Position numbers and translations under genes: made by a program. 64,000 nucleotides of DNA from a virus: IMG/VR virus record IMGVR_UViG_3300031673_000004, positions 64,485-128,484 of that record; one strand, written 5' to 3'. Of this stretch, positions 25,576 through 41,641 are shown in pieces. Under the pieces are notes generated by a model. It had not been told where the DNA came from, ran no database searches, and saw only the letters and a program-made list of their open reading frames with translations. How positions within the stretch are numbered: the first letter of the stretch is position 1; each line of letters opens with the position of its first letter.

Positions 25576-25649
25576 CGGCGCGTAGCTCAGTTTGGAAGAG
25601 CCCTCGCTCGATAAGCGAGAAGTCGTTGGTTCGAGTCCAACCGGGCCGA
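25576..25649 (+). tRNA. tRNA-Ile(GAT), C33 variant
   Basis: Cloverleaf; anticodon stem CTCGC/GCGAG, loop TC-GAT-AA; T loop TTCGAGT. Confidence 0.85.
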
Positions 25650-25656
25650 TAATTGA

Positions 25657-25731
25657 TGCGGGTTAGCGCAGCCTGGTTAGCGTGTCTGGCTCATAACCAG
25701 AAAGTCGCTGGTTCAAATCCAGCACCCGCAA
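25657..25731 (+). tRNA. tRNA-Met(CAT)
   Basis: Cloverleaf; TCTGG CT-CAT-AA CCAGA. Confidence 0.9.
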
Positions 25732-25779
25732 TATAGAGTAAACAACTTAGTATAATCATAAGTAGCAATGTTCTTTGAC

Positions 25780-26292
25780 AACCGGGTGAAGTTCAGTAAC
25801 GATGAAAATCCTGTGTTAGGAGTGGTTTTATCCACTTCTATCCTGGTTGAAAAAGCTGCACAAGGCGCGTTGCGGCTTGTGCTGGAGATGCTTCGCACCT
25901 CCTTCAGCGTTCCTGGAGGAATCCAGGGCTTGCACCCCAAGAGCAAGTAAGTAAACCGGCTATATTGGGTAACCGGAGGCTAAGATGTGGTAGGTGGAAA
26001 GCCCCACGCCCATTGATAACGATGGATGCGATGCGAACCACATCATTTTCCTCCAAGTAGCAAAGAGCCGTGGAGGATGTAGGTAAATAAGTTCTCGGCT
26101 AATTAATAGAGGTTTACTGGAAAGTACGCTTATTTGTACCTACCAAATTACGTCTTTTTGGTGCCTCGTGTAATTTTACTCTCCCAACACTTGGGACTGC
26201 GTTAGGTGTGCATACCTACCCAGGTCAAGGGATATTTTATCCTGGCTAAACGTGGTCTACTAGCGGGACGCTGCTAGGATGAGCCGGGCGTT
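25780..26292 (+). ncRNA. Large, highly structured RNA (~500 nt), GOLLD-like
   Basis: No convincing ORF; more than 10 hairpins (e.g. GCACAAG/CTTGTGC, CCTGGA-GGAA-TCCAGG, GATGTGGT/ACCACATC, CTAGCGG/CTGCTAG); between tRNA genes, downstream of TAGTATAAT; family assignment unverified. Confidence 0.6.
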
Positions 26293-26300
26293 TTTAATAA

Positions 26301-26375
26301 CGGGACATAGCGCAGTCTGGGCAGCGCAGGGCGTTTGGGGCGCTCAGGTCAGAGGTTCGAATCCTCTTGTCCCGA
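26301..26375 (+). tRNA. tRNA-Pro(TGG)
   Basis: Cloverleaf; GGGCG TT-TGG-GG CGCTC. Confidence 0.9.
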
Positions 26376-26438
26376 TTTTTTAGGGCCATAGGGCTCATTA
26401 ACTTGCTTCCACAGGATTATGAAAGATAAAATATTAGT

Positions 26439-26644
26439 TTGGGCATAGAAGGTTCCTAAAAACTTTTTATTGGAAAAAATTACCTTCCGCCCAATACACT
26501 TGTGTGGCATAGAAAGTTCCTAAAAAACTTTTAAAAGACTTACTTTCCGCCACATATTAACTTTATAGGCATAGGAAGTTCCTAAAATAGCCAAACTGGG
26601 TACTGGCCAATGGCCAGCCCAGCCTCTATTACTTCCCGCCTATA
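26439..26644 (+). repeat. Three tandem structured repeats GGC-ATA-GRARGT-TCCTAAAA...TT-ACYTYC-C-GCC
   Basis: Units 26439-26494, 26501-26556, 26564-26644 with compensatory stem changes. Confidence 0.9.
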
Positions 26645-26659
26645 TTTGTGAGGGACACT

Positions 26660-28537
26660 ATGAAAGCATACGTGAATCTGTTCAAAGCATTGCCTGTAGG
26701 AAAGCGCACTAAGTCCTTCTCAACAAAGTACTTGGACAAGGGCGTGCTGGTCGAGGATTCTGTAATTGAGGCACACGGAACTGCCAAAGTTGCTAAACTG
26801 GTTCGAAGTCTCGTTCCTACAGATTCCCAGATGAACAAGACCTTCCACAAATCATGGAAGAAAGTCAGGGACGCATCTATTGAGCAGCTAGTTATAGAGC
26901 AGATCATTCACTATTTTACAACCTACAGCTTTGAAGCATTGGGCTTCTACAGTAAAGAGACTGTTTACATCCCGAATGAAAAGTTGGAGCTAGAAGCGAA
27001 AGGCGGCATCACTTTTTATGTTCTGCGTGGCATCACACGGGATGAACTGATTGATGTGGTACACAAGCTCATTTCTTCAGGGATTGCCCTATCTGACCAA
27101 GATCTTACTGATTTGGTCAAAGTCATTAAGGATCAAAAATTAAAAATTGATCCAGCTAAATCAAGCAATAGGGAGATGGCTGTCAGGTTGTACAACTTGC
27201 TTGATATTACTCCCAAAGACCCAGTTGAATACTTGCGAATGAAAGTATACGGTGCAACTGAAAGTACGCTGCTAATTAAGAACAAGGAAGCTATTGAAGC
27301 TATTTCTAGTTCTTATAGTTCTGCGCTTGGGAAAAAAATCAATGCGTTCAGCGAATACAAGAAAAAGTTTGGGCTTGAGGGTTTAGCGTCCATTTTCTAC
27401 AGGTTCAAGCCGTTGTTCTTGGCATTCAAAAATAAGAAATCAGCAGCGACAGTAAATAGTATTCGGCGGCTAGCAGTAAAGTATCACCAGCCCATGCCAG
27501 AAGATTACATTGCTTCAGTCACCAAGCATTTGCGCAACGGCACATTCAGTGCAGCCAAGCTCAATAAGAGCCTTACTAAAGCAAATATATTCAGAAAGGT
27601 ACGGCTCGCACAAGCACTGCGTCTCTATGATAACCAGGATGCATCTGGTATCGTGTACTCTATTCGCAATGGTAAATCATTTGCCGGTACTATCAATCCA
27701 CTTGGTAAGAGCGTCAAAAGATCACTATCAGTAGTAATGGATAGTTTGGGCGCAGACCTTTCCCATGTAAAAGGAAAGAAAATCTTTATGGATGCAGGGT
27801 TGGTTGTTCCTACATCAGGCAAGATGTTCATGGGTGATGTACCATTTGGGTCGTATTTTTCTACTGATGATTCACTAGTGCTAGGAGTATCTTGGCGAGA
27901 TCTAGAAGATGTCCGTGTTGATCTGGATCTTTCTATTATCTCAGTGGATGGAAAGATCGGTTGGGATGGTTATTACAGAGATCCAAGCTGCCTCTTTTCA
28001 GGAGATATTACAGCGGCCCCCAAGGGAGCTACTGAAGCACATTTGATTCGTGCCGATTCGGAGGATGGGATTTATCTCCTTAACTTGAATTACTATAACG
28101 CTAATTACTATAACGCTGATATTAATGGAGGAATAGTCCCATTCACTCTGTTCGTAACCGAGGAGAAAGGATTCGAGCGTATTGAACGGCGCGCTGTAAT
28201 GTCTCAGGATAATATGGTATTCTGGGCTGACTCTAGCATAGACAGCAAGTACAACCAGAAGACTATCGGTGTTTTGAAAATCAAGGATGGTACCAAAACA
28301 TTCCATGCCTTCGAGTTCAAGACTGGTAAAAGTATCACTTCCCGAAACAATGAAAAAAGTATGAACACGATTAGCTACTATGACAAATATCTGGATTCTC
28401 TTCTTGACTTGGAAACACTCGTAGAATGGGCAGGGGCTAAAATAGTAGATACTCCTGAGAAAGCAGATATTGATTTATCTATGAAATCGCTTACAAAGAG
28501 CACACTGATTGATCTTCTGGTAGCTGATACCAAATAA
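26660..28537 (+). CDS. Helical (ROT/TROVE-like) protein with C-terminal TerD-like domain
   Basis: C-terminal SW....VDLDLS....IGWDG.Y...FSGDITAAP.GATE; helical N-terminus with FYRFKPLFLAFK; GAGGGA RBS; TROVE-like assignment inferred from the known Prok-RING_4-type architecture. Confidence 0.6.
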   Translation: MKAYVNLFKALPVGKRTKSFSTKYLDKGVLVEDSVIEAHGTAKVAKLVRSLVPTDSQMNKTFHKSWKKVRDASIEQLVIEQIIHYFTTYSFEALGFYSKETVYIPNEKLELEAKGGITFYVLRGITRDELIDVVHKLISSGIALSDQDLTDLVKVIKDQKLKIDPAKSSNREMAVRLYNLLDITPKDPVEYLRMKVYGATESTLLIKNKEAIEAISSSYSSALGKKINAFSEYKKKFGLEGLASIFYRFKPLFLAFKNKKSAATVNSIRRLAVKYHQPMPEDYIASVTKHLRNGTFSAAKLNKSLTKANIFRKVRLAQALRLYDNQDASGIVYSIRNGKSFAGTINPLGKSVKRSLSVVMDSLGADLSHVKGKKIFMDAGLVVPTSGKMFMGDVPFGSYFSTDDSLVLGVSWRDLEDVRVDLDLSIISVDGKIGWDGYYRDPSCLFSGDITAAPKGATEAHLIRADSEDGIYLLNLNYYNANYYNADINGGIVPFTLFVTEEKGFERIERRAVMSQDNMVFWADSSIDSKYNQKTIGVLKIKDGTKTFHAFEFKTGKSITSRNNEKSMNTISYYDKYLDSLLDLETLVEWAGAKIVDTPEKADIDLSMKSLTKSTLIDLLVADTK

Positions 28538-28726
28538 CGACTCTTGGAGGGCATACTATGGCCCCTGACAGCCAAAAGCTTGATCGGGTCTTCGGAGCAC
28601 GCTCCAAACCGCCTACGCAAGCCCGGTAGGACTAAGACGGTTAGGAAGCTTCTGGAGTATAGCGAATTCTTGCTTGGGGAAATACTATATTCTGGATCTT
28701 TTTAGGGCTTATTTTTGGAGGATATA

Positions 28727-29002
28727 ATGAAACTAAAAAATATTATCTTAGGTCTTATAGAACAACTTCCCATTAAAAGAGCGTTCATAAATTTCTTCGT
28801 AACAAAAAATGCCTGGGGAATGTTTCATAAAAATTCACATCTAAGTACTAAAAGCGGTAAACATAAAATTGAATATGGATCAAAGGAATCCGCAAGGAGA
28901 GCTGCAGACAATATGCAAAAGAAGTATGGGAACTATTACAGTGTTTACAAATGTATATTCTGTGATGGTTACCATATTGGTAAAAACAGGGACAATAAAT
29001 AG
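28727..29002 (+). CDS. Small protein with Zn ribbon
   Basis: GGAGG RBS; YKCIFCDGYHIG. Confidence 0.7.
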   Translation: MKLKNIILGLIEQLPIKRAFINFFVTKNAWGMFHKNSHLSTKSGKHKIEYGSKESARRAADNMQKKYGNYYSVYKCIFCDGYHIGKNRDNK

Positions 29003-29104
29003 TTTTAAATTGCAGCGCATTAAAGATAGGCCAGAGGGTAGGTCTTGAGGGTACTCACAGTAGTCAACCATAGAGATGGTTTTGGTAACGCCCACCCCGA
29101 ATTT

Positions 29105-29177
29105 GGGCACGTAGCTCTAACGGGAGAGCAGAAGCCCTGCAAGCTTACGGTTGCCAGTTCGAATCTGGCCGTGTCCA
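29105..29177 (+). tRNA. tRNA-Ala(TGC), C33 variant
   Basis: G3:U70 pair; loop CC-TGC-AA. Confidence 0.85.
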
Positions 29178-29183
29178 TGTTTT

Positions 29184-29256
29184 GCCCAGGTAGCCGAATG
29201 GAATAGGCGGCAGTCTTAGGAACTGCAATTTGGGGGTTCGAATCCCTTCCTGGGTA
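29184..29256 (+). tRNA. tRNA-Leu(TAG), short variable loop
   Basis: GCAGT CT-TAG-GA ACTGC. Confidence 0.85.
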
Positions 29257-29385
29257 TCTCATTATTATTTGGGGCTAAACCGTAAGGTTGAATGGTACAG
29301 GTAAGTTGGATAACCAATGGCATCCGGGCGTTCAAGGTTACCACGGCCTTCTATCCGGTGTTCCAACCTGGCCAAGCCCTATTTT

Positions 29386-29469
29386 GGAAGCTAAACTTGT
29401 CGTGGGATAAGTCCCGGTTGCTACCCGGAGTGTGGGCAAAACCATGTGGTTCGACTCCACTAGAGGCCA
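29386..29469 (+). tRNA. Atypical/degenerate tRNA-Ser(GCT)
   Basis: CCGG TT-GCT-AC CCGG, long variable arm, GTGG-TTCGACT-CCAC; mismatched acceptor stem, 7-bp D stem. Confidence 0.5.
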
Positions 29470-29540
29470 TATATATAACAGACAGATAGTAATGTCAAGT
29501 AACTATTCAAGAGTTCAATCCCCTCACCACATATTTTTTT

Positions 29541-29611
29541 GGGTTGGTAGCTCAATGCTAGAGCGAGCGTATGCGCATAGCTGACACACGGTTCAATTCC
29601 TGTCCAGCCCA
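29541..29611 (+). ncRNA. tRNA-like RNA with no canonical anticodon loop
   Basis: Acceptor GGGTTGG/CCAGCCC, D arm GCTC/GAGC, T loop TTCAATT; anticodon arm AGCGTATGCGCATAGCT. Confidence 0.55.
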
Positions 29612-29616
29612 TAATA

Positions 29617-29700
29617 CGAACGCCTGGAGATGTAGGTTTGAATCCTGCTCCCGTGGCAATTACGGGATAGTTTAAAGGAGAGAATACCAGGCCGTTTTTT
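29617..29700 (+). ncRNA. Circularly permuted tRNA-like RNA (YrlA-like topology)
   Basis: CCTGG, T arm, TCCCGT-loop-ACGGGA, D arm, CCAGG, then T-run. Confidence 0.65.
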
Positions 29701-29729
29701 CAAGGTTTAGTAAGTTATGGTATTTTAAC

Positions 29730-29758
29730 TTTACAAACTTTACATTCATGAGTATTAT
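29730..29758 (+). promoter_or_regulatory. Sigma70-type promoter TTTACA-N17-TATTAT; ATG follows almost immediately (possibly leaderless)
   Basis: Consensus match; no RBS before 29765. Confidence 0.55.
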
Positions 29759-29764
29759 ATCCAC

Positions 29765-30547
29765 ATGGAACAAATCAAAAAATGCAAATTCGCTAATGGC
29801 ACTGTTTACGCACTGCACACAGATGATGGCTACCCAATTGAAACAACAGATACTTTTCTTCCCTTTTACACAAAAGATGCCATCGGAAAGCACCAAAACA
29901 AACTAGACAATTATCAGCTTGGGGATCGTTCGGAACGTTGGATGATCGGTGTTTCTGTAATGTCAGGTTGCCCTGTGAAATGTCAATTTTGTGCAACGGG
30001 GCAACTTCCAAGGTACCGAAATCTTACAAGTGATGAAATTGTTGATCAAGTTCGATTTGTCCTTCAGCAACACCCAACATTAGAATTCAGCAAAGCTAAA
30101 GAACACAAAATAAATTACACTAGAATAGGTGAACCGTTTTTATGTATTGATTCCGTGAGAAAAGCAATCGGAGAGATTGAAAAAATATACCCAAATACTC
30201 ATCATTATGTTTCTACTATTGGAATCAAAGGATCCGATTTTTCCTGGATTCAAGAAAATATAACATTACAAATATCATTGCATGCATGTTCTGACCAGCG
30301 TAGAGATGAATTAATCCCATTTCGCAATAAAATGACTATAGAAGAGTTAGGGGCAATTCGAACCAAAAGCAAATTGAAGACAACATTGAATCTTACTCTT
30401 GTAAATAAAGATGATTTTGACATAGAAATTTTGAAAAAATATTTCCCTCCAAAGTATTTCTTCATCAAGCTAAGCCCTATCAATCCTAATACAGTTTCGG
30501 AAGCACATGGATTAGACAGTGTAATCGAAGCAGTTAACTTAGTCTGA
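29765..30547 (+). CDS. RlmN/Cfr-family radical SAM enzyme, N-terminal/core part
   Basis: SVMSGCPVKCQFCATG, RNLTSDEIVDQV, IGEPF, VSTIG, LQISLHA...RDELIP; lacks the C-terminal AACGQL. Confidence 0.85.
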   Translation: MEQIKKCKFANGTVYALHTDDGYPIETTDTFLPFYTKDAIGKHQNKLDNYQLGDRSERWMIGVSVMSGCPVKCQFCATGQLPRYRNLTSDEIVDQVRFVLQQHPTLEFSKAKEHKINYTRIGEPFLCIDSVRKAIGEIEKIYPNTHHYVSTIGIKGSDFSWIQENITLQISLHACSDQRRDELIPFRNKMTIEELGAIRTKSKLKTTLNLTLVNKDDFDIEILKKYFPPKYFFIKLSPINPNTVSEAHGLDSVIEAVNLV

Positions 30548-30559
30548 AAGGAGCTTATC

Positions 30560-30679
30560 ATGGCGGAAATTATGGAGCAATTGGATGAGGCTGGTTACGA
30601 TTACGCAATTGCCATTGCAACACAAGCAGAAATCGATGCAGGTGCAGCTTGTGGGCAGCTTTCCATCATTGTAGAGTAA
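30560..30679 (+). CDS. 39-aa peptide carrying the RlmN C-terminal AACGQL motif
   Basis: AAGGAG RBS; MAEIMEQLDEAGYDYAIAIATQAEIDAGAACGQLSIIVE; in frame with the upstream ORF. Confidence 0.8.
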   Translation: MAEIMEQLDEAGYDYAIAIATQAEIDAGAACGQLSIIVE

Positions 30680-30687
30680 CTTTTATG

Positions 30688-30790
30688 CCGGGAGTGGATG
30701 AGTGCCGATATCACCAGAGTGGACAGTGGGGATAGCGGGTTTCTCCGGAGTGCCCGTCCGCCACGCAGAGTTCAAGTCTCTGCCTCCCGG
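30688..30790 (+). ncRNA. tRNA-like RNA: acceptor-like stem and T arm with a non-tRNA interior
   Basis: GCCGGGAG/CTCCCGGT termini, GCAGAG-TTCAAGT-CTCTGC. Confidence 0.5.
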
Positions 30791-30809
30791 TCTTGTCTGA
30801 ACCTACACG

Positions 30810-30943
30810 GTTGCTCTGAGGCGCGGCAGCGCCTGGGTTGCGGTTGTGGAGCTTCTACATACAAAGCCAATCTGCGTCTGCCGACAAAAGGAAAGGCATG
30901 TAGGGAAGCAATGGAGCCGGGTGGCGGAATCCGGCCAGAGCAA
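30810..30943 (+). ncRNA. Candidate structured multibranch RNA
   Basis: TTGCTCTG/CAGAGCAA closing stem, AGGCGC-GGCA-GCGCCT, GCTTC/GAAGC, GCCGG/CCGGC. Confidence 0.45.
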
Positions 30944-30973
30944 AACGGGTTGTCGGATGCAGCAGTTTATTGT

Positions 30974-31168
30974 AAATTACGAATCCCGGAGATCGCCGGT
31001 TCGAATCCGGTCAGGGTAACACCACGGCTAATCTGAATTTTACAAAGTCTAGCTAACATGTAAAATTCCCTTGAACCGATCTTCAGTTCGCGGCTGTCGA
31101 AGAGTTCATTGAACAAGATTAATACGGGATATATCCTGTAGCTCAGTGGTTAGAGCACCGGGAATTTT
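30974..31168 (+). ncRNA. Circularly permuted tRNA-like RNA with ~110-nt structured insert closing the acceptor stem
   Basis: TCCCGG, GCCGG-TTCGAAT-CCGGT, CAGGGTA, insert, TATCCTG, TAGCTCAGTGGTTAGAGC, CCGGGA. Confidence 0.7.
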
Positions 31169-31170
31169 AC

Positions 31171-31241
31171 GCGGGTATGGCCGACTGGATAGGCTCAGGG
31201 CCTCCAACCCTGCTAAGCACGTTCGATTCGTGTTGCCCGCT
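31171..31241 (+). tRNA. tRNA-Gly(TCC), C33 variant
   Basis: CAGGG CC-TCC-AA CCCTG; U73. Confidence 0.85.
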
Positions 31242-31244
31242 TAT

Positions 31245-31317
31245 GACAGTGTAGCCAAATGGTAAGGCACTGGTCTGCAAAACCAGTATGTGATGGGTTC
31301 AAATCCCTCCGCTGTCT
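31245..31317 (+). tRNA. tRNA-Cys(GCA)
   Basis: CTGGT CT-GCA-AA ACCAG; U73. Confidence 0.9.
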
Positions 31318-31320
31318 TTT

Positions 31321-31393
31321 GCCGGGGTGACGGAAAGGTATACGTGCTGCTCTCAAAAAGCAGATTTTGTCGGTTCGAATCCGACTCCCGGTA
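31321..31393 (+). tRNA. tRNA-Leu(CAA), short variable loop
   Basis: CTGCT CT-CAA-AA AGCAG. Confidence 0.88.
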
Positions 31394-31414
31394 TAATGTT
31401 AATAGGAGATAAGC

Positions 31415-31606
31415 ATGTACAGAGTATGGGTTACACAAGGACAAGGCCCAGGTGAAAAACCTCAATGTGAATTTGAAACATTAGAAGAGGCACTCGCAGA
31501 AGTAGAAAAAATGAAAGGACAAGCATCATTCGGAATTGAATATCCAGACGGAACATGGCATAATTGGGAAGAAAATAATGCTGGCGTAACTCAGTTGGTA
31601 GAGTAG
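31415..31606 (+). CDS. Small hypothetical protein (3' end overlaps tRNA-Thr)
   Basis: AGGAG RBS, TATAAT upstream. Confidence 0.6.
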   Translation: MYRVWVTQGQGPGEKPQCEFETLEEALAEVEKMKGQASFGIEYPDGTWHNWEENNAGVTQLVE

Positions 31607-31652
31607 CTGATTTGTAATCAGCAGGTCGCGGGTTCGATCCCTGCCGCCAGCT
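31580..31652 (+). tRNA. tRNA-Thr(TGT)
   Basis: GCTGA TT-TGT-AA TCAGC. Confidence 0.93.
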
Positions 31653-31788
31653 TTTCCCGGTTCGATTCCTGTCTGGGGCTTTTAGTATAATGTCAGTGGA
31701 ATGCAACGCAAATATTGCATAAAGTGTAAAAAGCTAAGATTAATCAAGTTTTTTTATACTAATAAACTCAGAAAAGGGGCAATATAGC

Positions 31789-32613
31789 ATGAAAAAAATA
31801 AGAGACATTATAGAAGACAAAACTGGATTATGGTGGCATTCCCAAAATCTAAATGATGCGCATGGTTTACACGGTTCTATGTGGCTACAGGGGCGTGCCT
31901 GGTTACAGCATCCAAGTGATTTCCGTATTGGTTACGAGTGGAATCTTACAAGTAGTTCATGTGGGATTGGTATGACGCTTGCCTCTGACGAGAACCAAAT
32001 TGCACTTCACGTCTGTTTTCCGCCGATAGCATTATATACAAATTATACATTGCCATATAAATATAATAAATATTTTAGTTATCTACTTGGCAATACAGAT
32101 AGGCGTGATACATATCTAAGTTTCCATGATTGGACTGTATGGATAGAGCTTTGGAATAATAGCTGGGAATGGTCCAATCGTAAAACATTTTGGGAACAAC
32201 ATAGTTTGAGTTTAAATCTCTTGGATCTTATTCTTGGAAGATGGAAATATACCGAGCGTATCGTTGAAGAACAAGAAGTAAAGATACCTATGCCAGAAGG
32301 AACTTATCCAGCCAAGGCCAAAATATTTGAGTCTACATGGAAACGTCCACGGTGGTTTCCACGAAAAATGATACGAGCAAGTATAGATATCAAAGATAAT
32401 CAATTAATTCCATTTCCTGGAAAAGGTGAGAATTCATGGGATTGTGGGATGGATGGTTTGAGGGGTATGACGTGTTCGGAAAAGACCATTGAAGCTGCTA
32501 TTGGTGCAGTGGTCGGCAGCGTGCTACGCTCGCGGCGTAGGCACGGCGGAAGAGGTTGGGAACCTGATGTTAAGGATATCCCTCCGATTGTAGAATCCCA
32601 TAGAATAAAATAA
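31789..32613 (+). CDS. Hypothetical Trp-rich protein
   Basis: 274-aa ORF. Confidence 0.75.
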   Translation: MKKIRDIIEDKTGLWWHSQNLNDAHGLHGSMWLQGRAWLQHPSDFRIGYEWNLTSSSCGIGMTLASDENQIALHVCFPPIALYTNYTLPYKYNKYFSYLLGNTDRRDTYLSFHDWTVWIELWNNSWEWSNRKTFWEQHSLSLNLLDLILGRWKYTERIVEEQEVKIPMPEGTYPAKAKIFESTWKRPRWFPRKMIRASIDIKDNQLIPFPGKGENSWDCGMDGLRGMTCSEKTIEAAIGAVVGSVLRSRRRHGGRGWEPDVKDIPPIVESHRIK

Positions 32614-32626
32614 AAAGAGAAAAGCT

Positions 32627-33061
32627 ATGCGCCCAGATAAAGACAATTATTTTATGACTCTTGCACAAGGCATTAGCCGTAGGGCTACTTGTCTGCGCCA
32701 TAACGTAGGTTGTATAATTATTGATAGTTCCAATCATGTTATATCCACTGGTTATAATGGAGCACCAAAAGGATTAGCGCATTGTTTAGATGTCGGATGT
32801 ATTCGCAATGAAAAAAAGATTCCGTCTGGAGAAAGACAAGAATATTGCCGTGGTGTACACGCTGAGCAAAACGCCTTGATTCAAGCAGAAGATAGAGATA
32901 AACTTGCTGCAGGTACTTTGTATTGTACCCATACACCGTGCTTAGTTTGCCTAAAGATGATTTTAAATACTGGTATTATTCAAGTTGTCCATGGTGGAAA
33001 TTATCCAGTTACAAATTTAGCTTGGGATTTAATACAAGAATCAGGAATAAAATTCGAATAA
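32627..33061 (+). CDS. dCMP deaminase
   Basis: RATC...VGC, TGYNGAP, HAEQNA, PCLVC. Confidence 0.93.
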   Translation: MRPDKDNYFMTLAQGISRRATCLRHNVGCIIIDSSNHVISTGYNGAPKGLAHCLDVGCIRNEKKIPSGERQEYCRGVHAEQNALIQAEDRDKLAAGTLYCTHTPCLVCLKMILNTGIIQVVHGGNYPVTNLAWDLIQESGIKFE

Positions 33062-33083
33062 TATAAATTGGAGGAATAAAATC

Positions 33084-33644: not shown

Positions 33645-33653
33645 GCTCACTAC

Positions 33654-33924: not shown

Positions 33925-34006
33925 GCAGGTGTGGTGGAATGCATACACGTCAGACTTAAAATCTGGTGCCCGAAAGGGCGTGAGGGTTCAAATCCCTCCA
34001 TCTGCA
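33925..34006 (+). tRNA. tRNA-Leu(TAA)
   Basis: TCAGA CT-TAA-AA TCTGG; long variable arm. Confidence 0.92.
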
Positions 34007-34072
34007 TACATAAGGAGAAATTAAGATGGTTAGTATAATGTTTACAGGACCCCTAAAAGAACGATTATCCTA

Positions 34073-34405
34073 ATGCTTGAAGACGTACTCCATAAAGAAG
34101 TAAATAATTTATTAAATAAAGTAATGCTCGAATTTTCTAAGCTTTGCGGGCACCCACCCGATTGTCATTTATGCAAGGCTGATCTTGCATTAGGCTTGGC
34201 AGCAGTTTTAGCTGCAGGGCAAGAAAAAGTACTTGACAATTGGACTAATGATCACTATGCTATGCTCGACAAAATTGCAGAGGAAGAAACAACCCTGCAT
34301 GAGAAAGATACAAAAGAACAACATGAAAAAACAGTACAATTAATATTCGAAATGCAAGAGAAGGAAAAGATAAAACTAGAGGTGCTCGATGGAACGTCCG
34401 AATAA
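34073..34405 (+). CDS. Hypothetical protein, paralog of the N-terminus of 36167..37201
   Basis: Shared LCG.xPD..LCKAD.AL.L.AVL...NW...HY..L.KIA. Confidence 0.75.
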   Translation: MLEDVLHKEVNNLLNKVMLEFSKLCGHPPDCHLCKADLALGLAAVLAAGQEKVLDNWTNDHYAMLDKIAEEETTLHEKDTKEQHEKTVQLIFEMQEKEKIKLEVLDGTSE

Positions 34406-34649
34406 TTCAACGAAGCCAATTAAAGAAATACGACATGCTGATTTGACCCGATGGTCGGATGAATCTCGATTCAAATCTAAGTGTCCTGTATGTGCCGATG
34501 GGGTACTTTTGATTGGGCGTGGCGAACTTGGACAATTGCAGGGATTTGATAGGTGCATAGGATGCGGCCAAGCATTTAAATATCTTGATATTGATGATTT
34601 AAGGAAGCTGGATTGGAGTAGGTTCGATACGAAAAATACGGGATCGTAG
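34389..34649 (+). CDS. Small Zn-ribbon protein
   Basis: CPVC...CIGC; GAGG RBS. Confidence 0.65.
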   Translation: MERPNNSTKPIKEIRHADLTRWSDESRFKSKCPVCADGVLLIGRGELGQLQGFDRCIGCGQAFKYLDIDDLRKLDWSRFDTKNTGS

Positions 34650-34711
34650 CCAAGTGGTATGGCAACGGACTTTTAATCCGTGTACCGGGAGTTCGATTCT
34701 CCCCGGTCCCA
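34640..34711 (+). tRNA. tRNA-Lys(TTT)
   Basis: ACGGA CT-TTT-AA TCCGT. Confidence 0.92.
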
Positions 34712-34822
34712 TAAAGATTGAAGAGGAAAATTAAATGCGTATTTCAGATATTAGCAGACGAAAACATAATTCTTAGTAGTATAATATTAACAAGTAACCA
34801 CGAAACGAAATGGAGAAAGATT

Positions 34823-35617
34823 ATGTCTGAAACAGAAAAACAGAAGCGAAGAGCAGAGTTACATGAGATCCTCGCAGTGGATGCGTCCACCAAGGGTGAA
34901 TTTGAAAAGATCATTGCTGAAGCAGCAAATACGTTTTCAAAAAAGGCAGATCATTTTCAAGGACATCATCGTAAACTAAAGATGAAAGATGCGGAGCGAG
35001 AAACAGAAGAGTTAGCTGGAGAAACTCACAAGGAAATGGTAACGACTGTTTCTCAAAAGTTAAAGTACATGTCGAAAGCATGTGTCAAATACTTCGATGT
35101 GCTGCTCCAGAAGGAATCAACTAACCAAACTGCAAAAGCAGATTTGATTGTTGATGGAGAAACACTCGTTGAAAACGCACCGGCAACTTGGCTGCTCGGT
35201 ATGGAAGATCGCTTAAAAAAGGTCAGGTCAGTTTTAGATGACATTCCTACCCTACAGCCTGGTGTAAAATGGGAGGCAGATCCTACTCGTGGGAATGACA
35301 TCTGGAGATCAGCTTTTCCAGAAACTAAGGAAAAAACTGAGCAAACCATCAAGCCTTTCGTTCTCTATGAAGCGACTAAGGATCACCCAGCACAGGTTGA
35401 TAAATTAGTTGAGCATGTAGTTGTAGGATTGTTCAGTATCGACCGTTGGAGCGGTGCGTTCTCCCCTGCACAGAAGTCTGCGATCATGGAGCGGGTAGAT
35501 AAGCTTATTCGTGGTTGCATGAAAGCTCGGCAACGTGCAAATAAGGCGGAAGTAGTGCAATGCAAAGCAGGCAAAAAGCTCTTTGATTATCTATTAGGAG
35601 GAAACGATTCTAAGTGA
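34823..35617 (+). CDS. Conserved-type hypothetical protein followed by a structured ncRNA
   Basis: GGAG RBS before the ATG at 34823; LHEILAV..FQG..R, P...LL..E, IPTL.P, LYEATKDHPAQV, WSGA..P, KARQRAN. Confidence 0.8.
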   Translation: MSETEKQKRRAELHEILAVDASTKGEFEKIIAEAANTFSKKADHFQGHHRKLKMKDAERETEELAGETHKEMVTTVSQKLKYMSKACVKYFDVLLQKESTNQTAKADLIVDGETLVENAPATWLLGMEDRLKKVRSVLDDIPTLQPGVKWEADPTRGNDIWRSAFPETKEKTEQTIKPFVLYEATKDHPAQVDKLVEHVVVGLFSIDRWSGAFSPAQKSAIMERVDKLIRGCMKARQRANKAEVVQCKAGKKLFDYLLGGNDSK

Positions 35618-35619
35618 AT

Positions 35620-36020
35620 TGAGTGAGCTAAGCTTAGTGTCATCGTTGATGTTACCGCCTACACTACGGCCAGTCATTGACAGCCCAGTATTGTAGGTTC
35701 CCCGGATTGACATCCGGGAAAGGGCTAAACTTAGTGTATTGCTCATAAACTTAGGCTAGAAACTGGGGTAGTACTTGATAGGTTATCGAACCCAAAGCTT
35801 TCGAGCTAAAGGTTCAACCCCCTGTGCGTAGGTTCAATTCCTATCCCGTTCATTTTACGAACGGGTAGCTCAGTGGTAGAGCAAGGGGATATAAGACTGA
35901 AATTACCTATTCAAGGAACTCCTAGTGAATGCACGGACACAGCACGTAACGCTGTATTTAGCAGGGTCATGCGCCTATACGAACGGTGACGACTATACTG
36001 TGCATGACCCTGCGCCTTTT
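35620..36020 (+). ncRNA. ~400-nt structured RNA with TAARCTTAG repeats and an embedded permuted tRNA-like domain (35818-35888), ending in a terminator-like hairpin
   Basis: CCCCT, GTAGG-TTCAATT-CCTAT, CCCGTTC-loop-GAACGGG, TAGCTCAGTGGTAGAGC, AGGGG, within a longer stem; GCAGGGTCATGC/GCATGACCCTGC followed by T-run. Confidence 0.7.
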
Positions 36021-36166
36021 TAACTCTGTTAGGAGATATTCTATTCTTTCAACTAAAGGAGATAAATCATGTTAATCGATGCTATCGAAGAGTATAAAGA
36101 GAAGCTGTAAATTGGAAAATGGTATTGTTCTAATTGCTGTAAAAAAACTAACTTAGGAGATTTGAA

Positions 36167-37201
36167 ATGACAAAAAATGTTTACGAAGAAGTAAGTGATT
36201 CCCTTGATAAAATGATGCCAAAGTTATCTTACCTTTGTGGTAACCAGCCTGATCGTGAACTGTGCAAGGCAGACGTAGCGTTAGCATTGATGGCAGTTTT
36301 GGATTCCGACAACAACAGTAAGGAAATATTCAGTAATTGGGCGGCAGAGCACTATAACGCTCTAAACAAGATAGCGGATAAAGAGGCTAAACCGCGTAAA
36401 ACGGTCGTGCCTCAGCCTATACAAGGTTTTCTGCAGGACGTTACTAAGGGGGTGGAACAGCAAGCGTTGTGCCGTAAGATACTGGCATATCGCACTGTGA
36501 AGACGGGTGAGGTTGTACGATATGATAAAGATGCTGACAAAACAGCATATGTGGTTGGCGAACAGGGTAATGTTGTAAGAGTAGACGCAGGAAGGTATTG
36601 CTACCCACCGGAGCGCCAAATAACACCCAGTATAGACATTGGGCGCTTGGCGGATGTTGATTATATTAACGATATTATTTTTAGTATTGTACACGAAGAA
36701 GACGCTCCTTTTGTGGCCATGCTTAAAAAATGTGCTAATTATAAAATCAAAGAAAAGAAGTTACCAGACGTGTTTCGTGAGTTGAGAGCAAATGTTGAAT
36801 ATGACAAGGTGCCGTGTAAGTTTATGGTAGTTAACTTTAATAAGTTTGTTGCTTTTATTGGTGAGATTCGTAGAGAACGCGGCATCGAAAAAGGTACTAG
36901 ATATTTACGTGATGCGTTTCGTATTGAAGTGACTGATAGTAAAGCGTTATTTAATACTGGTCATCTAGGTGTTTTTGATGATGACGTTCAAATCATTTCT
37001 ACTAGTAATCATCCTGACCTTTGTAAACTTATAGCAGAGGATGAAGTTTTTGCGGTGCCTTCTACCGAGTATCTTGGCGGCATGCCTGTTAGGATAAAAC
37101 TATTTGCGTTTAAAGATGATGATTCACCTTCTTTGACAATATACGAATTGATTTCACAGGTGATTATTGCACCAGATAAAGTCTTTGCCGGGAAGTGGTA
37201 A
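36167..37201 (+). CDS. Fusion of a small helical domain with a divergent major-capsid-protein-like domain
   Basis: RKIL....GE...YDKD..AYVVGEQG, Y.P..I, EED..F..L, TGHLG, EYLG.MPVR, IYE.I..VI resemble large-myovirus HK97-fold MCPs (recognised from memory, not searched). Confidence 0.55.
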   Translation: MTKNVYEEVSDSLDKMMPKLSYLCGNQPDRELCKADVALALMAVLDSDNNSKEIFSNWAAEHYNALNKIADKEAKPRKTVVPQPIQGFLQDVTKGVEQQALCRKILAYRTVKTGEVVRYDKDADKTAYVVGEQGNVVRVDAGRYCYPPERQITPSIDIGRLADVDYINDIIFSIVHEEDAPFVAMLKKCANYKIKEKKLPDVFRELRANVEYDKVPCKFMVVNFNKFVAFIGEIRRERGIEKGTRYLRDAFRIEVTDSKALFNTGHLGVFDDDVQIISTSNHPDLCKLIAEDEVFAVPSTEYLGGMPVRIKLFAFKDDDSPSLTIYELISQVIIAPDKVFAGKW

Positions 37202-37335
37202 ATATGCATAATTTCTCACCTACTTCTGAAGCTGAAATCCTAGCGTTATTGGAAGAATTTAAAAACAAAGATCCACAAATTTCTTGATTCCTTAGTATAA
37301 TAATATCAGGTATGTGAACTGCTAGGCGGCATCTG

Positions 37336-37674
37336 ATGAAAAAATTATTTGGAAATACTGAATTAATCAGGAAAAATAAACGTTTGAAATATTGGGCAGA
37401 TCTGGATGCCAGTCCCGATGAAAAAGAATATGAAGTACTTGTAAAGTATACAATCGTAGAAACTATAGAAACTTATAAAACTAAACAGATTACAGTTTGT
37501 GCACAGAATATTGATGACGCCAAAGAACTGGCGGAACAAAAAATATGGGGAAAGGTGGATGATAATGAAGACTTAGATATGCAGGACACTACTATAATCA
37601 GTATAAATAACGAAGCATATATTGATGAAAAAACAATAGATATGTTCAAAAATGCTCAAGACAAAAAGAATTGA
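37336..37674 (+). CDS. Hypothetical protein
   Basis: 112-aa ORF after TAGTATAAT. Confidence 0.65.
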   Translation: MKKLFGNTELIRKNKRLKYWADLDASPDEKEYEVLVKYTIVETIETYKTKQITVCAQNIDDAKELAEQKIWGKVDDNEDLDMQDTTIISINNEAYIDEKTIDMFKNAQDKKN

Positions 37675-38404
37675 AAAGATAAACAATCTTGCACTTAAAT
37701 ATTACATAGAACAATTAAATCGTTCTAAGAGAGCACAAGATTATCTATATGCTAGAATAAGTCAATCAATTACAAAAAGATACTTTATTGGGTACGCCCC
37801 CAATAGCGGATTTATTGAATATTTGAACAAACACAATGTAACTAAAACTGATGCTACTGATTCTGGGCTAGTGGTATTTGATTATGACAACAATGCGTAC
37901 CCACGATTTACTCACCGAATCATGATCCCCATAATTCATGCAGGACGACTAATAGGGTTTGGGGGACGGACACTTGGACCTGAAACAAAACAGAATCCTA
38001 AATATATTAATTCAAAAGCATCAGTCTTGTATAATAAGAGTGAAGTCCTGTATGGGTTATGGCGTGCTAGGGCATCAATTGAAAAACTAGGCTACGCATT
38101 TCTAGTTGAAGGTTATTTCGATGTGCTGAGTCTTGTTAATCATAAGATATACAATTGCGTTGGGTTATGTGGCACAGCATTTACAAAAGATCAAGCTAAA
38201 CAGCTAAAACGTTATACAGAAAAAGTTTATATAATGTTAGATGGTGATAATCCAGGAAAAGTAGCAGCAAAAAAGGCCAAGATAATATTGAAAAAAAATC
38301 ATATTTATGGTGGGAGAGTTATCCTACCAAACCAATTAGATCCTGATGAATTTATCAAAAAATATGGGCGTGAAGCGCTAAACAAGGTAAAGATAATAAA
38401 ATGA
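37652..38404 (+). CDS. dnaG: DnaG-type primase catalytic core (no Zn-binding domain)
   Basis: RFTHRIMIPI, GFGGR, PKYINS, LVEGYFDV, DGDNPG, DPDE. Confidence 0.9.
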   Translation: MLKTKRIEKINNLALKYYIEQLNRSKRAQDYLYARISQSITKRYFIGYAPNSGFIEYLNKHNVTKTDATDSGLVVFDYDNNAYPRFTHRIMIPIIHAGRLIGFGGRTLGPETKQNPKYINSKASVLYNKSEVLYGLWRARASIEKLGYAFLVEGYFDVLSLVNHKIYNCVGLCGTAFTKDQAKQLKRYTEKVYIMLDGDNPGKVAAKKAKIILKKNHIYGGRVILPNQLDPDEFIKKYGREALNKVKIIK

Positions 38405-38865
38405 TTGTAGGATTTACAGGCCATCGTAAGTTTCAACATCCAGAAAAGAAAATAGCGAAACAGCTAATACTGTTTCTTACTAAACTAAAGCCTGATAAAA
38501 CGATTTCCGGGATGGCATTGGGTTTTGATCAATTAGCTGCTCGTATTTGTGTGTATCTTGGCATACCCTTTATAGCAGCAATTCCAGCTAAAGAGCAACC
38601 AAATTCTTGGCCGGTAAAAGCTGTACGGGACTATTTCAAAATATTAGAAAAGGCAGACAAAACTGTATACGTAGACAAGATAAAAGGATATAGTAATCTT
38701 GGTGATACGTTTATAAACAAATTATTCAACAGGAACTATTGGATGGTTGATAACTCAGATAAAATGATAGCCTACTATTTAAACACAGGTCGAGGTGGCA
38801 CTGCCGCAACTGTGAATTATACTATGCAACAGAGAAAAATTGTAATTCTAATGGAAGTGCGATGA
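38401..38865 (+). CDS. SLOG/YspA (DUF1273)-like protein
   Basis: GFTGHR, ISGMALGFDQ, RNYWMVDNSD, GGTA. Confidence 0.85.
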   Translation: MIVGFTGHRKFQHPEKKIAKQLILFLTKLKPDKTISGMALGFDQLAARICVYLGIPFIAAIPAKEQPNSWPVKAVRDYFKILEKADKTVYVDKIKGYSNLGDTFINKLFNRNYWMVDNSDKMIAYYLNTGRGGTAATVNYTMQQRKIVILMEVR

Positions 38866-39503
38866 GCAAAACACAGGGAAAGAGAAACGCACGGGATTAT
38901 TATGCAACGCCACAATGGTGCATTGACGGTCTAGCTAATACTTTGTATACCATATTAAATACAGGAATTTATATAAATCCATTTTATCTCTGTGACATTG
39001 GGGCAGGTGATGGAAGGATTGGACTTACCTGTAAAGCTAAGCTACTGTCTATTATAGACTTAAACTGTCTATTTGTTGATATTGTAAAGATAAAAGATCC
39101 TCTGAAGGACTGCACATGGTTAACAAAAGACTTCATGAAGATAAATCTAAACAAACTATTTCGTAAGAAATTAATGCCACGATTGTTCGTATCTAATCCG
39201 CCATTTTCTATGTCAAATCAGATCGTGTTTAAAACTATAGATTATCTCAAAACATGTCGTACAGGCATTGCTGCATTTTTGTTACGATTAAATTGGTTAG
39301 GATCTAATAAAAGAGCCGCATGGCTGCAAGAAAATCCACCTGGAAAATTACTTGTTCTTACCCCCCGCCCATCATTCACAGGCAAGGGAACAGATTCACC
39401 AGAATATGCATGGTTCTTGTGGAGTCGTGGAATTGAATTGGGAAGTACGATTAATATAATCCGAAGAGATCACTTATCTGATAAGGAGAATGGAAATGAC
39501 TGA
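38862..39503 (+). CDS. Putative amino-DNA methyltransferase
   Basis: DYYATP, DIGAGDG, SNPPF, LLRLNWL, RPSF..GTD..EYAWF.W. Confidence 0.8.
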   Translation: MSKTQGKRNARDYYATPQWCIDGLANTLYTILNTGIYINPFYLCDIGAGDGRIGLTCKAKLLSIIDLNCLFVDIVKIKDPLKDCTWLTKDFMKINLNKLFRKKLMPRLFVSNPPFSMSNQIVFKTIDYLKTCRTGIAAFLLRLNWLGSNKRAAWLQENPPGKLLVLTPRPSFTGKGTDSPEYAWFLWSRGIELGSTINIIRRDHLSDKENGND

Positions 39504-39930
39504 TAAAAAAGAAATAAAAACTATTACTAAAGAAGATCGAAAGAAATTTGCTCAGGAACAAGTCAGATTCCTAAAAGCACAGGGAATTACTAATAAACTA
39601 AGACTAAGTAGGATTTTCAAGGCAGCAGGCCCCGGCCAAATACAGGATGCCTGGAAATTGGCTGAACAGGGAACTACACAGGTTCGCAAGGACGTATTAG
39701 ATTGCCTTCTGACGGGCGTACAGGGCTCCCAGGACTTCGGCTGGGAAAGAATGATATCTGTGCTCAAGGAAGCCGGGTTCGCGCCCCCAGCGTCAAATTC
39801 CAGCCATTCATTCTTTAGAGCGCTAGATGGAGCTATCGAGATATTAGTCCCAAATTCATATGAATTTGATGAAGCAGAATTAGCCGAAATTGAAAAAGGA
39901 CTAAACAAAAAATCGGATAATAATGAGTAA
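39490..39930 (+). CDS. Hypothetical protein
   Basis: AAGGAG RBS. Confidence 0.7.
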   Translation: MEMTDKKEIKTITKEDRKKFAQEQVRFLKAQGITNKLRLSRIFKAAGPGQIQDAWKLAEQGTTQVRKDVLDCLLTGVQGSQDFGWERMISVLKEAGFAPPASNSSHSFFRALDGAIEILVPNSYEFDEAELAEIEKGLNKKSDNNE

Positions 39931-39936
39931 TTAATA

Positions 39937-40008
39937 CGGGGAATACGGGAGTCGAACCCGTCTCTTTTAGTAGACAGCCAAATATGCTAGCCGATACACC
40001 AATTCCCC
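39937..40008 (-). tRNA. tRNA-Asp(GTC), U37
   Basis: Reverse complement TTTGG CT-GTC-TA CTAAA; G73. Confidence 0.85.
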
Positions 40009-40009
40009 A

Positions 40010-40083
40010 TGGGGTGCACCGTGAGAATTGAACTCACATAACTGGGGCCACGGCCCAGTGCTCTACCTTTGAGCTAGGCGCAC
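40010..40083 (-). tRNA. tRNA-His(GTG), C33 variant, encoded CCA
   Basis: CTGGG CC-GTG-GC CCCAG; C73-CCA. Confidence 0.87.
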
Positions 40084-40141
40084 TCAGGTTCTCGAAAATC
40101 AACATGGTGATGGGGAGTGTCCATAGCTACCTCCAATCGTA

Positions 40142-40215
40142 TGACCCCGGAGGGGTTCGAACCCTACTTTGCAGCCTTGAAAGGGCTGTGTCCTGACCGT
40201 TTAGACGACGGGGCC
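40142..40215 (-). tRNA. tRNA-Glu(TTC)
   Basis: CAGCC CT-TTC-AA GGCTG. Confidence 0.9.
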
Positions 40216-40216
40216 G

Positions 40217-40510
40217 TTATTTAGTTGCCTCTATTTCCTTTAGAGTAAACATTCGTCTACAAATAAATGGGTCATTCCATGGGGCACCTTTTATCAATTC
40301 TTTTAGCGTCCTAATATTATCAAGTTCCCTGAGAACAATAGGCAGCATTGCTTTATGCGGTTCTGTTTTTCCTGTAGCCCATCTTAGGATGGTAGAAATA
40401 GATACTCCCAAATTTTGTGCCAGTACTCGAACTACAGGATTATAATTCGAAAGCGAGGTTACATCGGCAACCCCTGTCACTTCCTTTATCTTTTGAATTA
40501 GCTTTTCCAT
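40217..40510 (-). CDS. HTH DNA-binding protein
   Basis: LAQNLGVSISTILRWATGKTEP. Confidence 0.7.
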   Translation of the reverse strand: MEKLIQKIKEVTGVADVTSLSNYNPVVRVLAQNLGVSISTILRWATGKTEPHKAMLPIVLRELDNIRTLKELIKGAPWNDPFICRRMFTLKEIEATK

Positions 40511-40523
40511 TTTTACCTTCCTA

Positions 40524-40595
40524 CGGCCTGGAGGTGAATCGAACACCTGTCATTCGGTTAACAGCCGAACGCTTAAACCACTAAGCTACCAGGCC
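40524..40595 (-). tRNA. tRNA-Asn(GTT)
   Basis: TTCGG CT-GTT-AA CCGAA. Confidence 0.9.
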
Positions 40596-40599
40596 AAAA

Positions 40600-40671
40600 C
40601 AGGCCGAGAACGATTTGAACGCTCACCCTTAGTTTTGGAGACTAAGATGCTACCAGTTACACCATCGGCCC
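40600..40671 (-). tRNA. tRNA-Trp(CCA)
   Basis: TTAGT CT-CCA-AA ACTAA. Confidence 0.9.
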
Positions 40672-40750
40672 AAAATGGACTTCTAAAGATACTGGGAGAC
40701 TTGCTCCCACTCTCCTTATTTTGCCAAGGCCATATCATCTTTGTCTCCTA

Positions 40751-40823
40751 TGGGACGAGGTGGAATTGAACCGCCGACTCGCAGATTTTCAGTCTGCTGC
40801 TCTACCATCTGAGCTATCGCCCC
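40751..40823 (-). tRNA. tRNA-Phe(GAA)
   Basis: GCAGA CT-GAA-AA TCTGC. Confidence 0.93.
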
Positions 40824-41017
40824 TTACATTCTCCTGTAAACTTTCCATATCTTTTACAAATTGTTGAGATGTTTTTTTGTACCGTTCTACAACATCCCAA
40901 ATGGTTTCTCCCGGTAGTGGAACATAGTTTACTACTTTTATTAATGGTGCTGCAAACGCTTCAAATTGTAATTTTTTGTGTTTCAATTGTCTTCTCCCAT
41001 TTTCAATTACTTTTATA

Positions 41018-41088
41018 CAGGCTCGCAGGGACTCGAACCCCAATTCTTGACTCCAAAGGCCAATGTCCTACCATTGAACGACGAGCCT
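41018..41088 (-). tRNA. tRNA-Gln(TTG)
   Basis: TTGGC CT-TTG-GA GTCAA. Confidence 0.88.
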
Positions 41089-41092
41089 AACA

Positions 41093-41163
41093 CAGCGGCG
41101 GTAGGAATTGAACCCACGTAACGCAGTCCAGGGCCGCGTGCCAAACCACTAGGCGACACCGCT
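41093..41163 (-). tRNA. tRNA-Gln(CTG), C33 variant
   Basis: CGCGG CC-CTG-GA CTGCG. Confidence 0.85.
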
Positions 41164-41248
41164 ATTGTATAACCAATGCAGGCAATCGATGTGCCTGCTA
41201 CACCTCTTAATTTTTTAATTTCCCGTATCATATCTTTACTCCATTTTA

Positions 41249-41334
41249 TGGGCCGGGATGGATTCGAACCACCAATGTTTAGCCAGTGGCACTTGGTCTA
41301 CAGCCAAGCCCCTTCTCCATTCGGGCACCGACCC
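41249..41334 (-). tRNA. tRNA-Tyr(GTA)
   Basis: CTTGG CT-GTA-GA CCAAG; long variable arm. Confidence 0.88.
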
Positions 41335-41339
41335 ATTCA

Positions 41340-41424
41340 AGGAAAGTGAGGGATTCGAACCCTCGGACGTTTTACCGCCTACGGTTTTCAGGACCGTTGC
41401 CTTAATCCGCTCGGCCAACCTTCC
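41340..41424 (-). tRNA. tRNA-Ser(TGA), C33 variant
   Basis: ACGGT CC-TGA-AA ACCGT; long variable arm. Confidence 0.87.
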
Positions 41425-41636: not shown

Positions 41637-41641
41637 TCACC

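Follow-up and report, generated by a model that had tools for sequence, protein, structure and literature searches.

Uridine at position 33 (U33) is almost invariant in elongator tRNAs (PMC5041475). Cytidine at this position (C33) occurs in a functional tRNA, the initiator tRNA-Met of multicellular eukaryotes, where it is an anti-determinant for loop modification by yeast KEOPS and E. coli TsaBCDE (PMC5041475, PMC8887486). The yeast elongator tRNA-Leu(GAG) has a natural C33, decodes normally and performs about equally with C33 or U33 (PMC13492127). Here, we describe six tRNA genes with C33 in a 64,000-nucleotide stretch of an uncultured phage (IMG/VR record IMGVR_UViG_3300031673_000004, positions 64,485 to 128,484; hereinafter, the window), which is present in six soil metagenome DNA runs. 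These genes resemble the yeast case in that C33 is genome-encoded in an elongator, whereas the yeast case is a single eukaryotic tRNA with no link to defence, and the C33 tRNAs of the window make up a quarter of a phage set. The initiator tRNA-Met differs from them in not being an elongator, and among the six only tRNA-Ile would be a substrate for N6-threonylcarbamoyladenosine (t6A) formation.

Phage tRNAs with altered anticodon loops are a known kind, and those with C33 belong to it. An earlier note, made from the sequence of the window alone, had stated that phage tRNAs can carry changes defeating host tRNA nucleases; this agrees with one published hypothesis and one published experiment. 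Nuclease-insensitive phage tRNAs were proposed as a hypothesis by van den Berg et al. 2023 (PMC10264068), who read anticodon-loop substitutions in large phage tRNA sets as escape from tRNases of the VapC, PrrC and colicin types. The cases given there are at sites of known cleavage, for the most part 3' of the anticodon, unlike position 33 in the window. The terms "U33", "C33" and "position 33" have 0 occurrences each in the main text of that paper, the supplementary tables of which might list such changes, and no paper on C33 in phage tRNAs turned up in literature searches that combined phage tRNAs with C33 or U33. The experiment concerns the T5 tRNA-Lys, which was shown to resist the PARIS nuclease AriB (PMC11464382); this phage tRNA, whose anticodon stem-loop is unlike that of the host, stays intact and restores translation after the host tRNA has been cut.

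The window (G+C content 36-44%) is phage-encoded, as its large open reading frames (ORFs) match PHROG families of DNA polymerase, UvsX-like recombinase, SbcC-like nuclease subunit and, weakly, major head protein. ARAGORN identified 23 tRNA genes, 13 on the plus strand (25575-34711) and 10 on the minus strand (39936-41424), and the Rfam model RF00005 matched the same 23 and one additional tRNA-like element at 29541-29611. Position 33, with the loops taken from the ARAGORN sequences, is a pyrimidine in all 23 tRNAs (17 T and 6 C). The tRNA island and its six C33 genes are the following:

25575-41424, both strands: tRNA island with all 23 tRNA genes (ARAGORN, Rfam), 17 of them U33 and 6 of them C33
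25576-25649, plus strand: tRNA-Ile(GAU), loop UC-GAU-AA, C33 at 25609; Rfam 56.5 bits
29105-29177, plus strand: tRNA-Ala(UGC), loop CC-UGC-AA, C33 at 29137, G3:U70; Rfam 54.9 bits
31171-31241, plus strand: tRNA-Gly(UCC), loop CC-UCC-AA, C33 at 31202, U73; Rfam 45.3 bits
40010-40083, minus strand: tRNA-His(GUG), loop CC-GUG-GC, C33 at 40052, C73, CCA encoded; Rfam 58.7 bits (40013-40083)
41093-41163, minus strand: tRNA-Gln(CUG), loop CC-CUG-GA, C33 at 41132; Rfam 46.8 bits
41340-41424, minus strand: tRNA-Ser(UGA), long variable arm, loop CC-UGA-AA, C33 at 41391; Rfam 52.8 bits

The ARAGORN sequences agree with the six anticodon loops listed in the earlier note, and ARAGORN together with Rfam confirms its count of six C33 tRNAs among 23, on both strands. 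All six were called by ARAGORN, and their Rfam scores (45.3-58.7 bits) are above the gathering threshold of 29 bits. The intact cloverleaves that had been described for them, apart from position 33, are borne out by these scores and by the ARAGORN drawings, which also contain the identity elements G3:U70 of tRNA-Ala, U73 of tRNA-Gly and C73 of tRNA-His. The base at position -1 of tRNA-His is A, hence the bacterial G-1:C73 pair is not encoded. In none of the six does U33 precede the anticodon as it does in a canonical tRNA, though each loop consists of 7 nt. The C33 genes belong to five tandem groups, in which they lie 0-6 bases from U33 neighbors: tRNA-Ile(GAU) is 6 nt upstream of tRNA-Met(CAU), tRNA-Ala(UGC) is 4 nt upstream of tRNA-Leu(UAG), tRNA-Gly(UCC) is the first of three closely packed genes (Gly-Cys-Leu, 3 and 2 nt apart), tRNA-His(GUG) abuts tRNA-Asp with a 0-nt spacer, tRNA-Gln(CUG) is 2 nt from the U33-containing tRNA-Gln(UUG), and tRNA-Ser(UGA) is 4 nt upstream of tRNA-Tyr. 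None of the six C33 sites is among the 41 differences listed, of 41+206, for near-identical strain contigs from three other soil runs, which is a weak check.

An alternative fold with U at position 33, which the earlier note had named as a possible objection, was looked for and rejected: shifting the register by 1-2 bases keeps 0-3 of the five anticodon-stem pairs, compared with 4-5 of five in the standard fold, and no alternative restores U33. The assignment of C33 therefore holds.

Among the invariant positions U8, G53, U54, U55, C56, R57, A58 and C61, none deviates in any of the 23 window tRNAs, compared with 6 of 23 at position 33. One window tRNA lacks the D-loop GG and tRNA-Asp has U37, neither of them being a C33 tRNA; the six have canonical T-loops and a purine at position 37, and their invariant core, D-loop GG included, deviates in 0 of 6. 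In the sample of viral tRNAs described below, a further deviation at an invariant position was observed in 0 of 19 C33 tRNAs versus 77 of 583 U33 tRNAs, which indicates that C33 is not part of a general decay. Pseudogene decay of the six was likewise rejected, since the stems are kept (4-5 of five anticodon pairs) and the invariants are intact, the sole flaw being one G.G mismatch in the acceptor stem of tRNA-Ile(GAU) in the ARAGORN drawing.

These features bear on the possibility that the six are not translation tRNAs but decaying pseudogenes, decoys that sequester a host enzyme, or regulatory RNAs resembling tRNAs. Such roles would fit the presence in the island of tRNA-like elements unable to decode, for instance the one at 29541-29611 with its malformed anticodon arm, and the lower Rfam scores of the C33 tRNAs, on average 52.5 versus 59.6 bits for the U33 tRNAs (about 7 bits, by arithmetic on the window scores); part of this deficit is a direct penalty for C in the U33 column. 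They are hard to reconcile with the intact cloverleaves, 7-nt loops, purine 37, canonical T-loops and identity elements of all six, and with the place of these tRNAs in the set, where they alone serve Ile(AUY), Ala, Gly, His and Ser(UCN), five classes of amino acid or codon box for which the phage encodes no other acceptor. The codons they read are also preferred ones: GCA accounts for 413 of 908 Ala codons, GGA for 326 of 889 Gly codons, and AUU plus AUC for 655 of 1024 Ile codons. We consider a non-translational role highly improbable; most likely, judging from their sequences, the six C33 tRNAs are working phage tRNAs.

Several other features of the tRNA set were observed. The 23 tRNAs represent 19 amino acids, and tRNA-Val is not among them, though Val makes up 5.9% of the long-ORF codons. 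The AUA codon is frequent (369 codons), so that a tRNA-Ile of the lysidine type may be present as one of the two tRNAs with anticodon CAU. The tRNA-like element at 29541-29611 (plus strand) scores 39.8 bits with Rfam and has no ARAGORN call. Its acceptor, D and T arms are normal; the anticodon arm, one base short and lacking a 7-nt loop, makes it unable to decode in its present form. A purine at tRNA position 37 is the rule, and tRNA-Asp(GUC) (39936-40009, minus strand; loop CT-GTC-TA), with U37, is the sole tRNA among the 23 with a pyrimidine there. The tRNA-Arg(UCU) (33519-33601, plus strand) measures 83 nt, its variable region being extended, and has the lowest Rfam score in the set (39.5 bits). 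Scanning for promoter-like and terminator-like sequences gave results at chance level (45 versus 42 expected and 19 versus 14.2 expected, respectively); one 11-of-12 match lies before the minus-strand tRNA cluster, some 220 nt upstream, and nothing is drawn from this match.

The commonness of C33 was assessed in viral contigs and in bacterial and archaeal genomes retrieved with one 18-letter D-arm motif, which excludes the anticodon loop. The tRNAs of these loci were called by ARAGORN, identical sequences were counted once, and calls without a three-letter anticodon were left out. The viral baseline (117 loci, 609 distinct tRNAs) comprises 584 U33, 19 C33, 3 A33 and 3 G33 tRNAs, and the cellular baseline (120 bacterial and archaeal loci, 218 tRNAs) comprises 216 U33 and 2 C33 tRNAs. 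The window, with C33 in 6 of 23 tRNAs, exceeds both baselines, at binomial p = 5.9e-5 for the viral and p = 5.3e-8 for the cellular one. Among the tRNAs that carry the seed motif itself, C33 was found in 8 of 121 viral versus 0 of 121 cellular sequences (Fisher p = 0.007). A further set of 80 metagenome loci, picked by a homologue of the DUF7873 gene of the window (see below), contains C33 in 15 of 154 tRNAs; some of these arrays overlap, and two ARAGORN calls without a three-letter anticodon were dropped from the set. The richest C33 arrays seen outside the window have 5 of 25 and 4 of 36 such tRNAs. From four other viral contigs, 3 tRNAs were obtained altogether. We regard the observation of six C33 tRNAs in the window as confirmed, both as real and as above chance.

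The distribution of C33 among anticodons was not uniform. For the six anticodon classes that carry it in the window, C33 was found in 8 of 108 tRNAs of unrelated viral contigs versus 11 of 501 tRNAs of other classes (p = 0.010), and Ile-GAU considered separately has C33 in 3 of 17 tRNAs versus 16 of 592 for the remaining tRNAs (p = 0.013). Three of the window loops were found again in the viral sample, CCTCCAA of tRNA-Gly three times and CCTGCAA of tRNA-Ala and CCTGAAA of tRNA-Ser once each; the tRNAs with recurring loops are not close homologues, the best same-anticodon identity for the six being 0.72-0.76. The presence of C33 in the same classes of unrelated phages suggests a specific pressure on nucleotide 33.

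The same class is affected in cultured phages. In Rhizobium phage RHph_TM30, C33 was found in one of 20 tRNAs, and this is tRNA-Ile(GAU) with the loop CC-GAU-AA. Comparison with tRNA-Ile(GAU) of Rhizobium phage RHph_Y65 revealed differences at 21 of 77 bases and at 0 of the 17 bases of the anticodon stem-loop, C33 included (hypergeometric p = 0.002). The loop CC-GAU-AA is also present in tRNA-Ile(GAU) of Vibrio phage Pontus, Aeromonas phage AhMtk13a, Klebsiella phage TNG87 and Erwinia phage Kaldavass; the genes of RHph_Y65 and of these four phages came from a BLAST search whose query had C33, and five of five is therefore a biased result that speaks of presence and not of frequency. All these tRNAs share with the window C33 in the same class and a location in tRNA islands of large phages, whereas they have C32-C33 and a common stem, compared with U32-C33 and another stem in tRNA-Ile of the window. 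A different substitution was observed in Rhizobium phage RHph_Y1_11, in which the single tRNA beside the DUF7873 gene is tRNA-Ile(UAU) (21236-21311) with G33 (loop CG-TAT-AA).

Close relatives of the phage were sought in several ways. A megablast comparison of positions 25000-42000 with GenBank phages yielded no more than three short matches to tRNAs; of five window proteins compared with viral contigs, two had distant matches only (28-43% identity) and three had none. A metagenome scan with the DUF7873 alignment gave one relative at 82% identity, a sequence of 1,789 bases that contains tRNA-Lys only. A relative is also indicated by protein P0002, at 88% identity, which belongs to a 14-kb contig. 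RHph_TM30 was considered as a close relative and rejected: of 19 window proteins compared with its island by tblastn, only DUF7873 (44%) and DNA polymerase (26%) had matches.

A deaminase that turns the gene-encoded C33 into U33 in the mature tRNA would restore the canonical loop, and the earlier note had offered such C-to-U editing as one of two explanations. A gene for a zinc deaminase is indeed found inside the tRNA island:

32627-33061, plus strand: dCMP-deaminase-type zinc deaminase (motif scan; PF00383, 78.8 bits)

This is the only deaminase signature in a six-frame motif scan of the 64-kb window. The protein is far closer to dCMP deaminases than to tRNA-editing enzymes of the TadA type (90 bits with ComEB versus 23 bits with TadA), and its six solved relatives are all of the dCMP or CMP/dCMP type, the best being the dCMP deaminases 2hvv, 4p9c and 1vq2. 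In RHph_TM30, a dCMP deaminase is annotated among the replication genes. C-to-U editing of position 32 occurs in trypanosome tRNA-Thr and Vibrio cholerae tRNA-Tyr, and we know of no editing at tRNA position 33; the low-rate occurrence of C33 in many unrelated phages would moreover need a widespread and undescribed editing enzyme. As the only deaminase gene found in the window is of the dCMP-deaminase type, editing is left unsupported, though a host enzyme could supply it, and we judge it very unlikely.

Enzymes that touch position 33 are of two kinds, anticodon nucleases that cut between nucleotides 32 and 33 or 33 and 34, and modification enzymes that depend on U33. The contact-dependent inhibition toxin CdiA-CT EC536 makes a cut in tRNA-Ile(GAU) between C32 and U33 (PMC11724271); it is an enzyme of the type whose action could be altered by a change at position 33, but it is not a phage defence. 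Among modification enzymes, E. coli TsaBCDE puts no t6A on a U33C initiator tRNA (PMC8887486). A title cited in PMC1635277 states that E. coli TGT requires UGU in the loop, in which case tRNA-His with C33 might be a weak substrate for queuosine formation.

Three genes of the window, all located beyond the minus-strand tRNA cluster, encode proteins related to RNA repair:

43062-43847, minus strand: HAD_SAK_2 protein, the HAD phosphatase domain of "Swiss Army Knife" RNA-repair proteins (PF18143, 72.8 bits, cut-off 27.5)
50410-51582, plus strand: RlaP, polymerase-beta-type nucleotidyltransferase of an RNA-repair pathway (PF10127, 53 bits, cut-off 23)
54076-54732, minus strand: RNA ligase family protein (PF09414 RNA_ligase, 56.3 bits, cut-off 27)

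The RlaP ORF also matches the nucleotidyltransferase family PHROG 388 (E = 6.9e-58). The presence of these genes suggests that RNA breakage and repair matter to the phage.

The explanation that we tentatively prefer, at a little below an even chance, is that the six are functional elongators in which C33 is retained through changed recognition by a putative host nuclease or modification enzyme. In the proposed mechanism, C33 is written in the DNA of six phage elongator tRNA genes and would be tolerated by the translation system, and it would alter the recognition of these tRNAs by host enzymes whose site of action is the 5' side of the anticodon loop; the candidates are nucleases with cuts at 32/33 or 33/34 and modification enzymes that depend on U33. 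The mechanism presumes that the six tRNAs are expressed, charged and used, that C33 is selected and not merely tolerated, and that a host nuclease or modification enzyme would be the selector. It is argued for by (i) the confinement of the deviation to position 33 among the invariants, (ii) the class-specific recurrence and the enrichment in phages, (iii) the match to preferred codons, (iv) the unchanged C33 stem-loop in RHph_TM30 and RHph_Y65, (v) the ability of C33 to work in a yeast elongator, and (vi) the existence of enzymes touching position 33 and the RNA-repair genes of the window. The narrower proposal of the earlier note, convergent selection for nuclease evasion, stands in part: the specificity for position 33, the recurrence by class and the RNA-repair genes fit it, whereas gamma-toxin and colicin E5 still cut U33C substrates.

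A number of observations weigh against selection through altered enzyme recognition. With respect to the enzymes, gamma-toxin cuts a U33C substrate normally (PMC2275089), and for colicin E5 the U33C change was without effect in one laboratory, reduced cleavage having been reported by another (PMC1635277). A 2026 structure of TsaBD shows U33 without base-specific contact and unrelated to t6A (PMC13276492), in conflict with PMC8887486. In the T5 system, AriB cuts at 40/41 and escape is through a U-A to A-U swap in the stem, not through position 33 (PMC11464382). With respect to distribution, the overall C33 rates of 3.1% in viral and 0.9% in cellular tRNAs differ with an odds ratio of 3.5 and p = 0.083; phage T5, the standard example of counter-defence by tRNAs, has C33 in 0 of 22 tRNAs. 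No relative carrying the six tRNAs was found in GenBank phages, viral contigs or the metagenome scan.

The remaining contrary observations point to a near-neutral relaxation, in which a pyrimidine at position 33 is enough in this phage-host pair, U and C drift, and C33 is functional without advantage. About 39% C is expected, as inferred from G+C content, at a pyrimidine-only site in a 39%-GC genome, and 6 of 23 is not different from this expectation (p = 0.29). Phage tRNAs deviate at other invariants to a comparable extent: 5.4% at U8, 3.9% at U54 and 3.0% at A58 in the viral sample, compared with 0% in the cellular sample, and 4.1% (25/608) for non-U33 or 3.1% (19/609) for C33 alone. Because these rates are similar, part of the phage C33 excess may reflect a looser general constraint. 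Furthermore, the array L065 and the arrays L045 and L047 of another lineage, which have the same gene order and tRNAs of 55-79% identity, share no C33 position. The pyrimidine kept at position 33 in all 23 window tRNAs and the negligible effect of C33 on the yeast elongator are also in line with drift. However, the 19 C33 tRNAs among 609 indicate that position 33 is strongly constrained in most phages, and its relaxation would be special to this one, in which no other invariant is relaxed (0 of 23). Drift would also not be expected to affect the same anticodon classes in unrelated phages or to spare the stem-loop of tRNA-Ile in RHph_TM30 and RHph_Y65, which differ at so many bases elsewhere. 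On balance, near-neutral relaxation appears possible but rather unlikely.

A broader version of altered recognition, which we regard as doubtful, is that C33 serves as a general and cheap "stealth" mark, which would keep decoding intact and block widespread host enzymes that read U33. Those blocked might be anticodon nucleases that cleave at 32/33 or 33/34, or else enzymes of modification, for instance the t6A and queuosine machineries, the products of which are recognized by nucleases. The phage of the window would then be a case under strong pressure, having C33 in a quarter of its tRNAs and RNA-repair genes close by.

Several other genes were noted in and around the tRNA island. The DUF7873 gene (34718-35617, plus strand; PF25283, 248 bits) begins directly after tRNA-Lys, and its homologues are found in or beside tRNA clusters of cultured Rhizobium and Klebsiella phages and many metagenome contigs; this location suggests an RNA-related role for DUF7873. 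A radical-SAM ORF inside the island (29765-30547, plus strand) is RlmN/Cfr-like, with a score of 72.5 bits that is far under the 290-bit cut-off, and the ORF at 26648-28537 has no family match in PHROG, Pfam and NCBIfam scans. Just past the minus-strand tRNA cluster, two proteins with PARP-type ADP-ribosyltransferase domains (44018-45268 and 46559-47377) flank a homologue of pyruvoyl-dependent arginine decarboxylase (45934-46482), all on the minus strand. The RNA ligase gene is adjoined by a homologue of CoaD-type pantetheine-phosphate adenylyltransferase (54744-55238, minus strand; 167.5 bits, cut-off 103.3). In the DNA polymerase ORF (34-2598, plus strand), residues 394-520 match a PHROG endonuclease family between ends that match polymerase, and this stretch could represent an intein or the insertion of a homing endonuclease.

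The tRNA set of this phage indicates that the U33 rule is breakable without visible damage, as C stands at position 33 in a quarter of an otherwise textbook set. Should the pressure stem from a host enzyme, either a tRNA nuclease or one of modification, conflicts of this type would be recognizable from C33, a simple mark in the sequence, which would likewise help to find the enzymes behind them. If C33 is neutral, a requirement beyond decoding as such would have to keep U33 near-universal in cellular tRNAs. As tRNA-Ile with C33 is present in several cultured phages, bench tests of the question are possible now.

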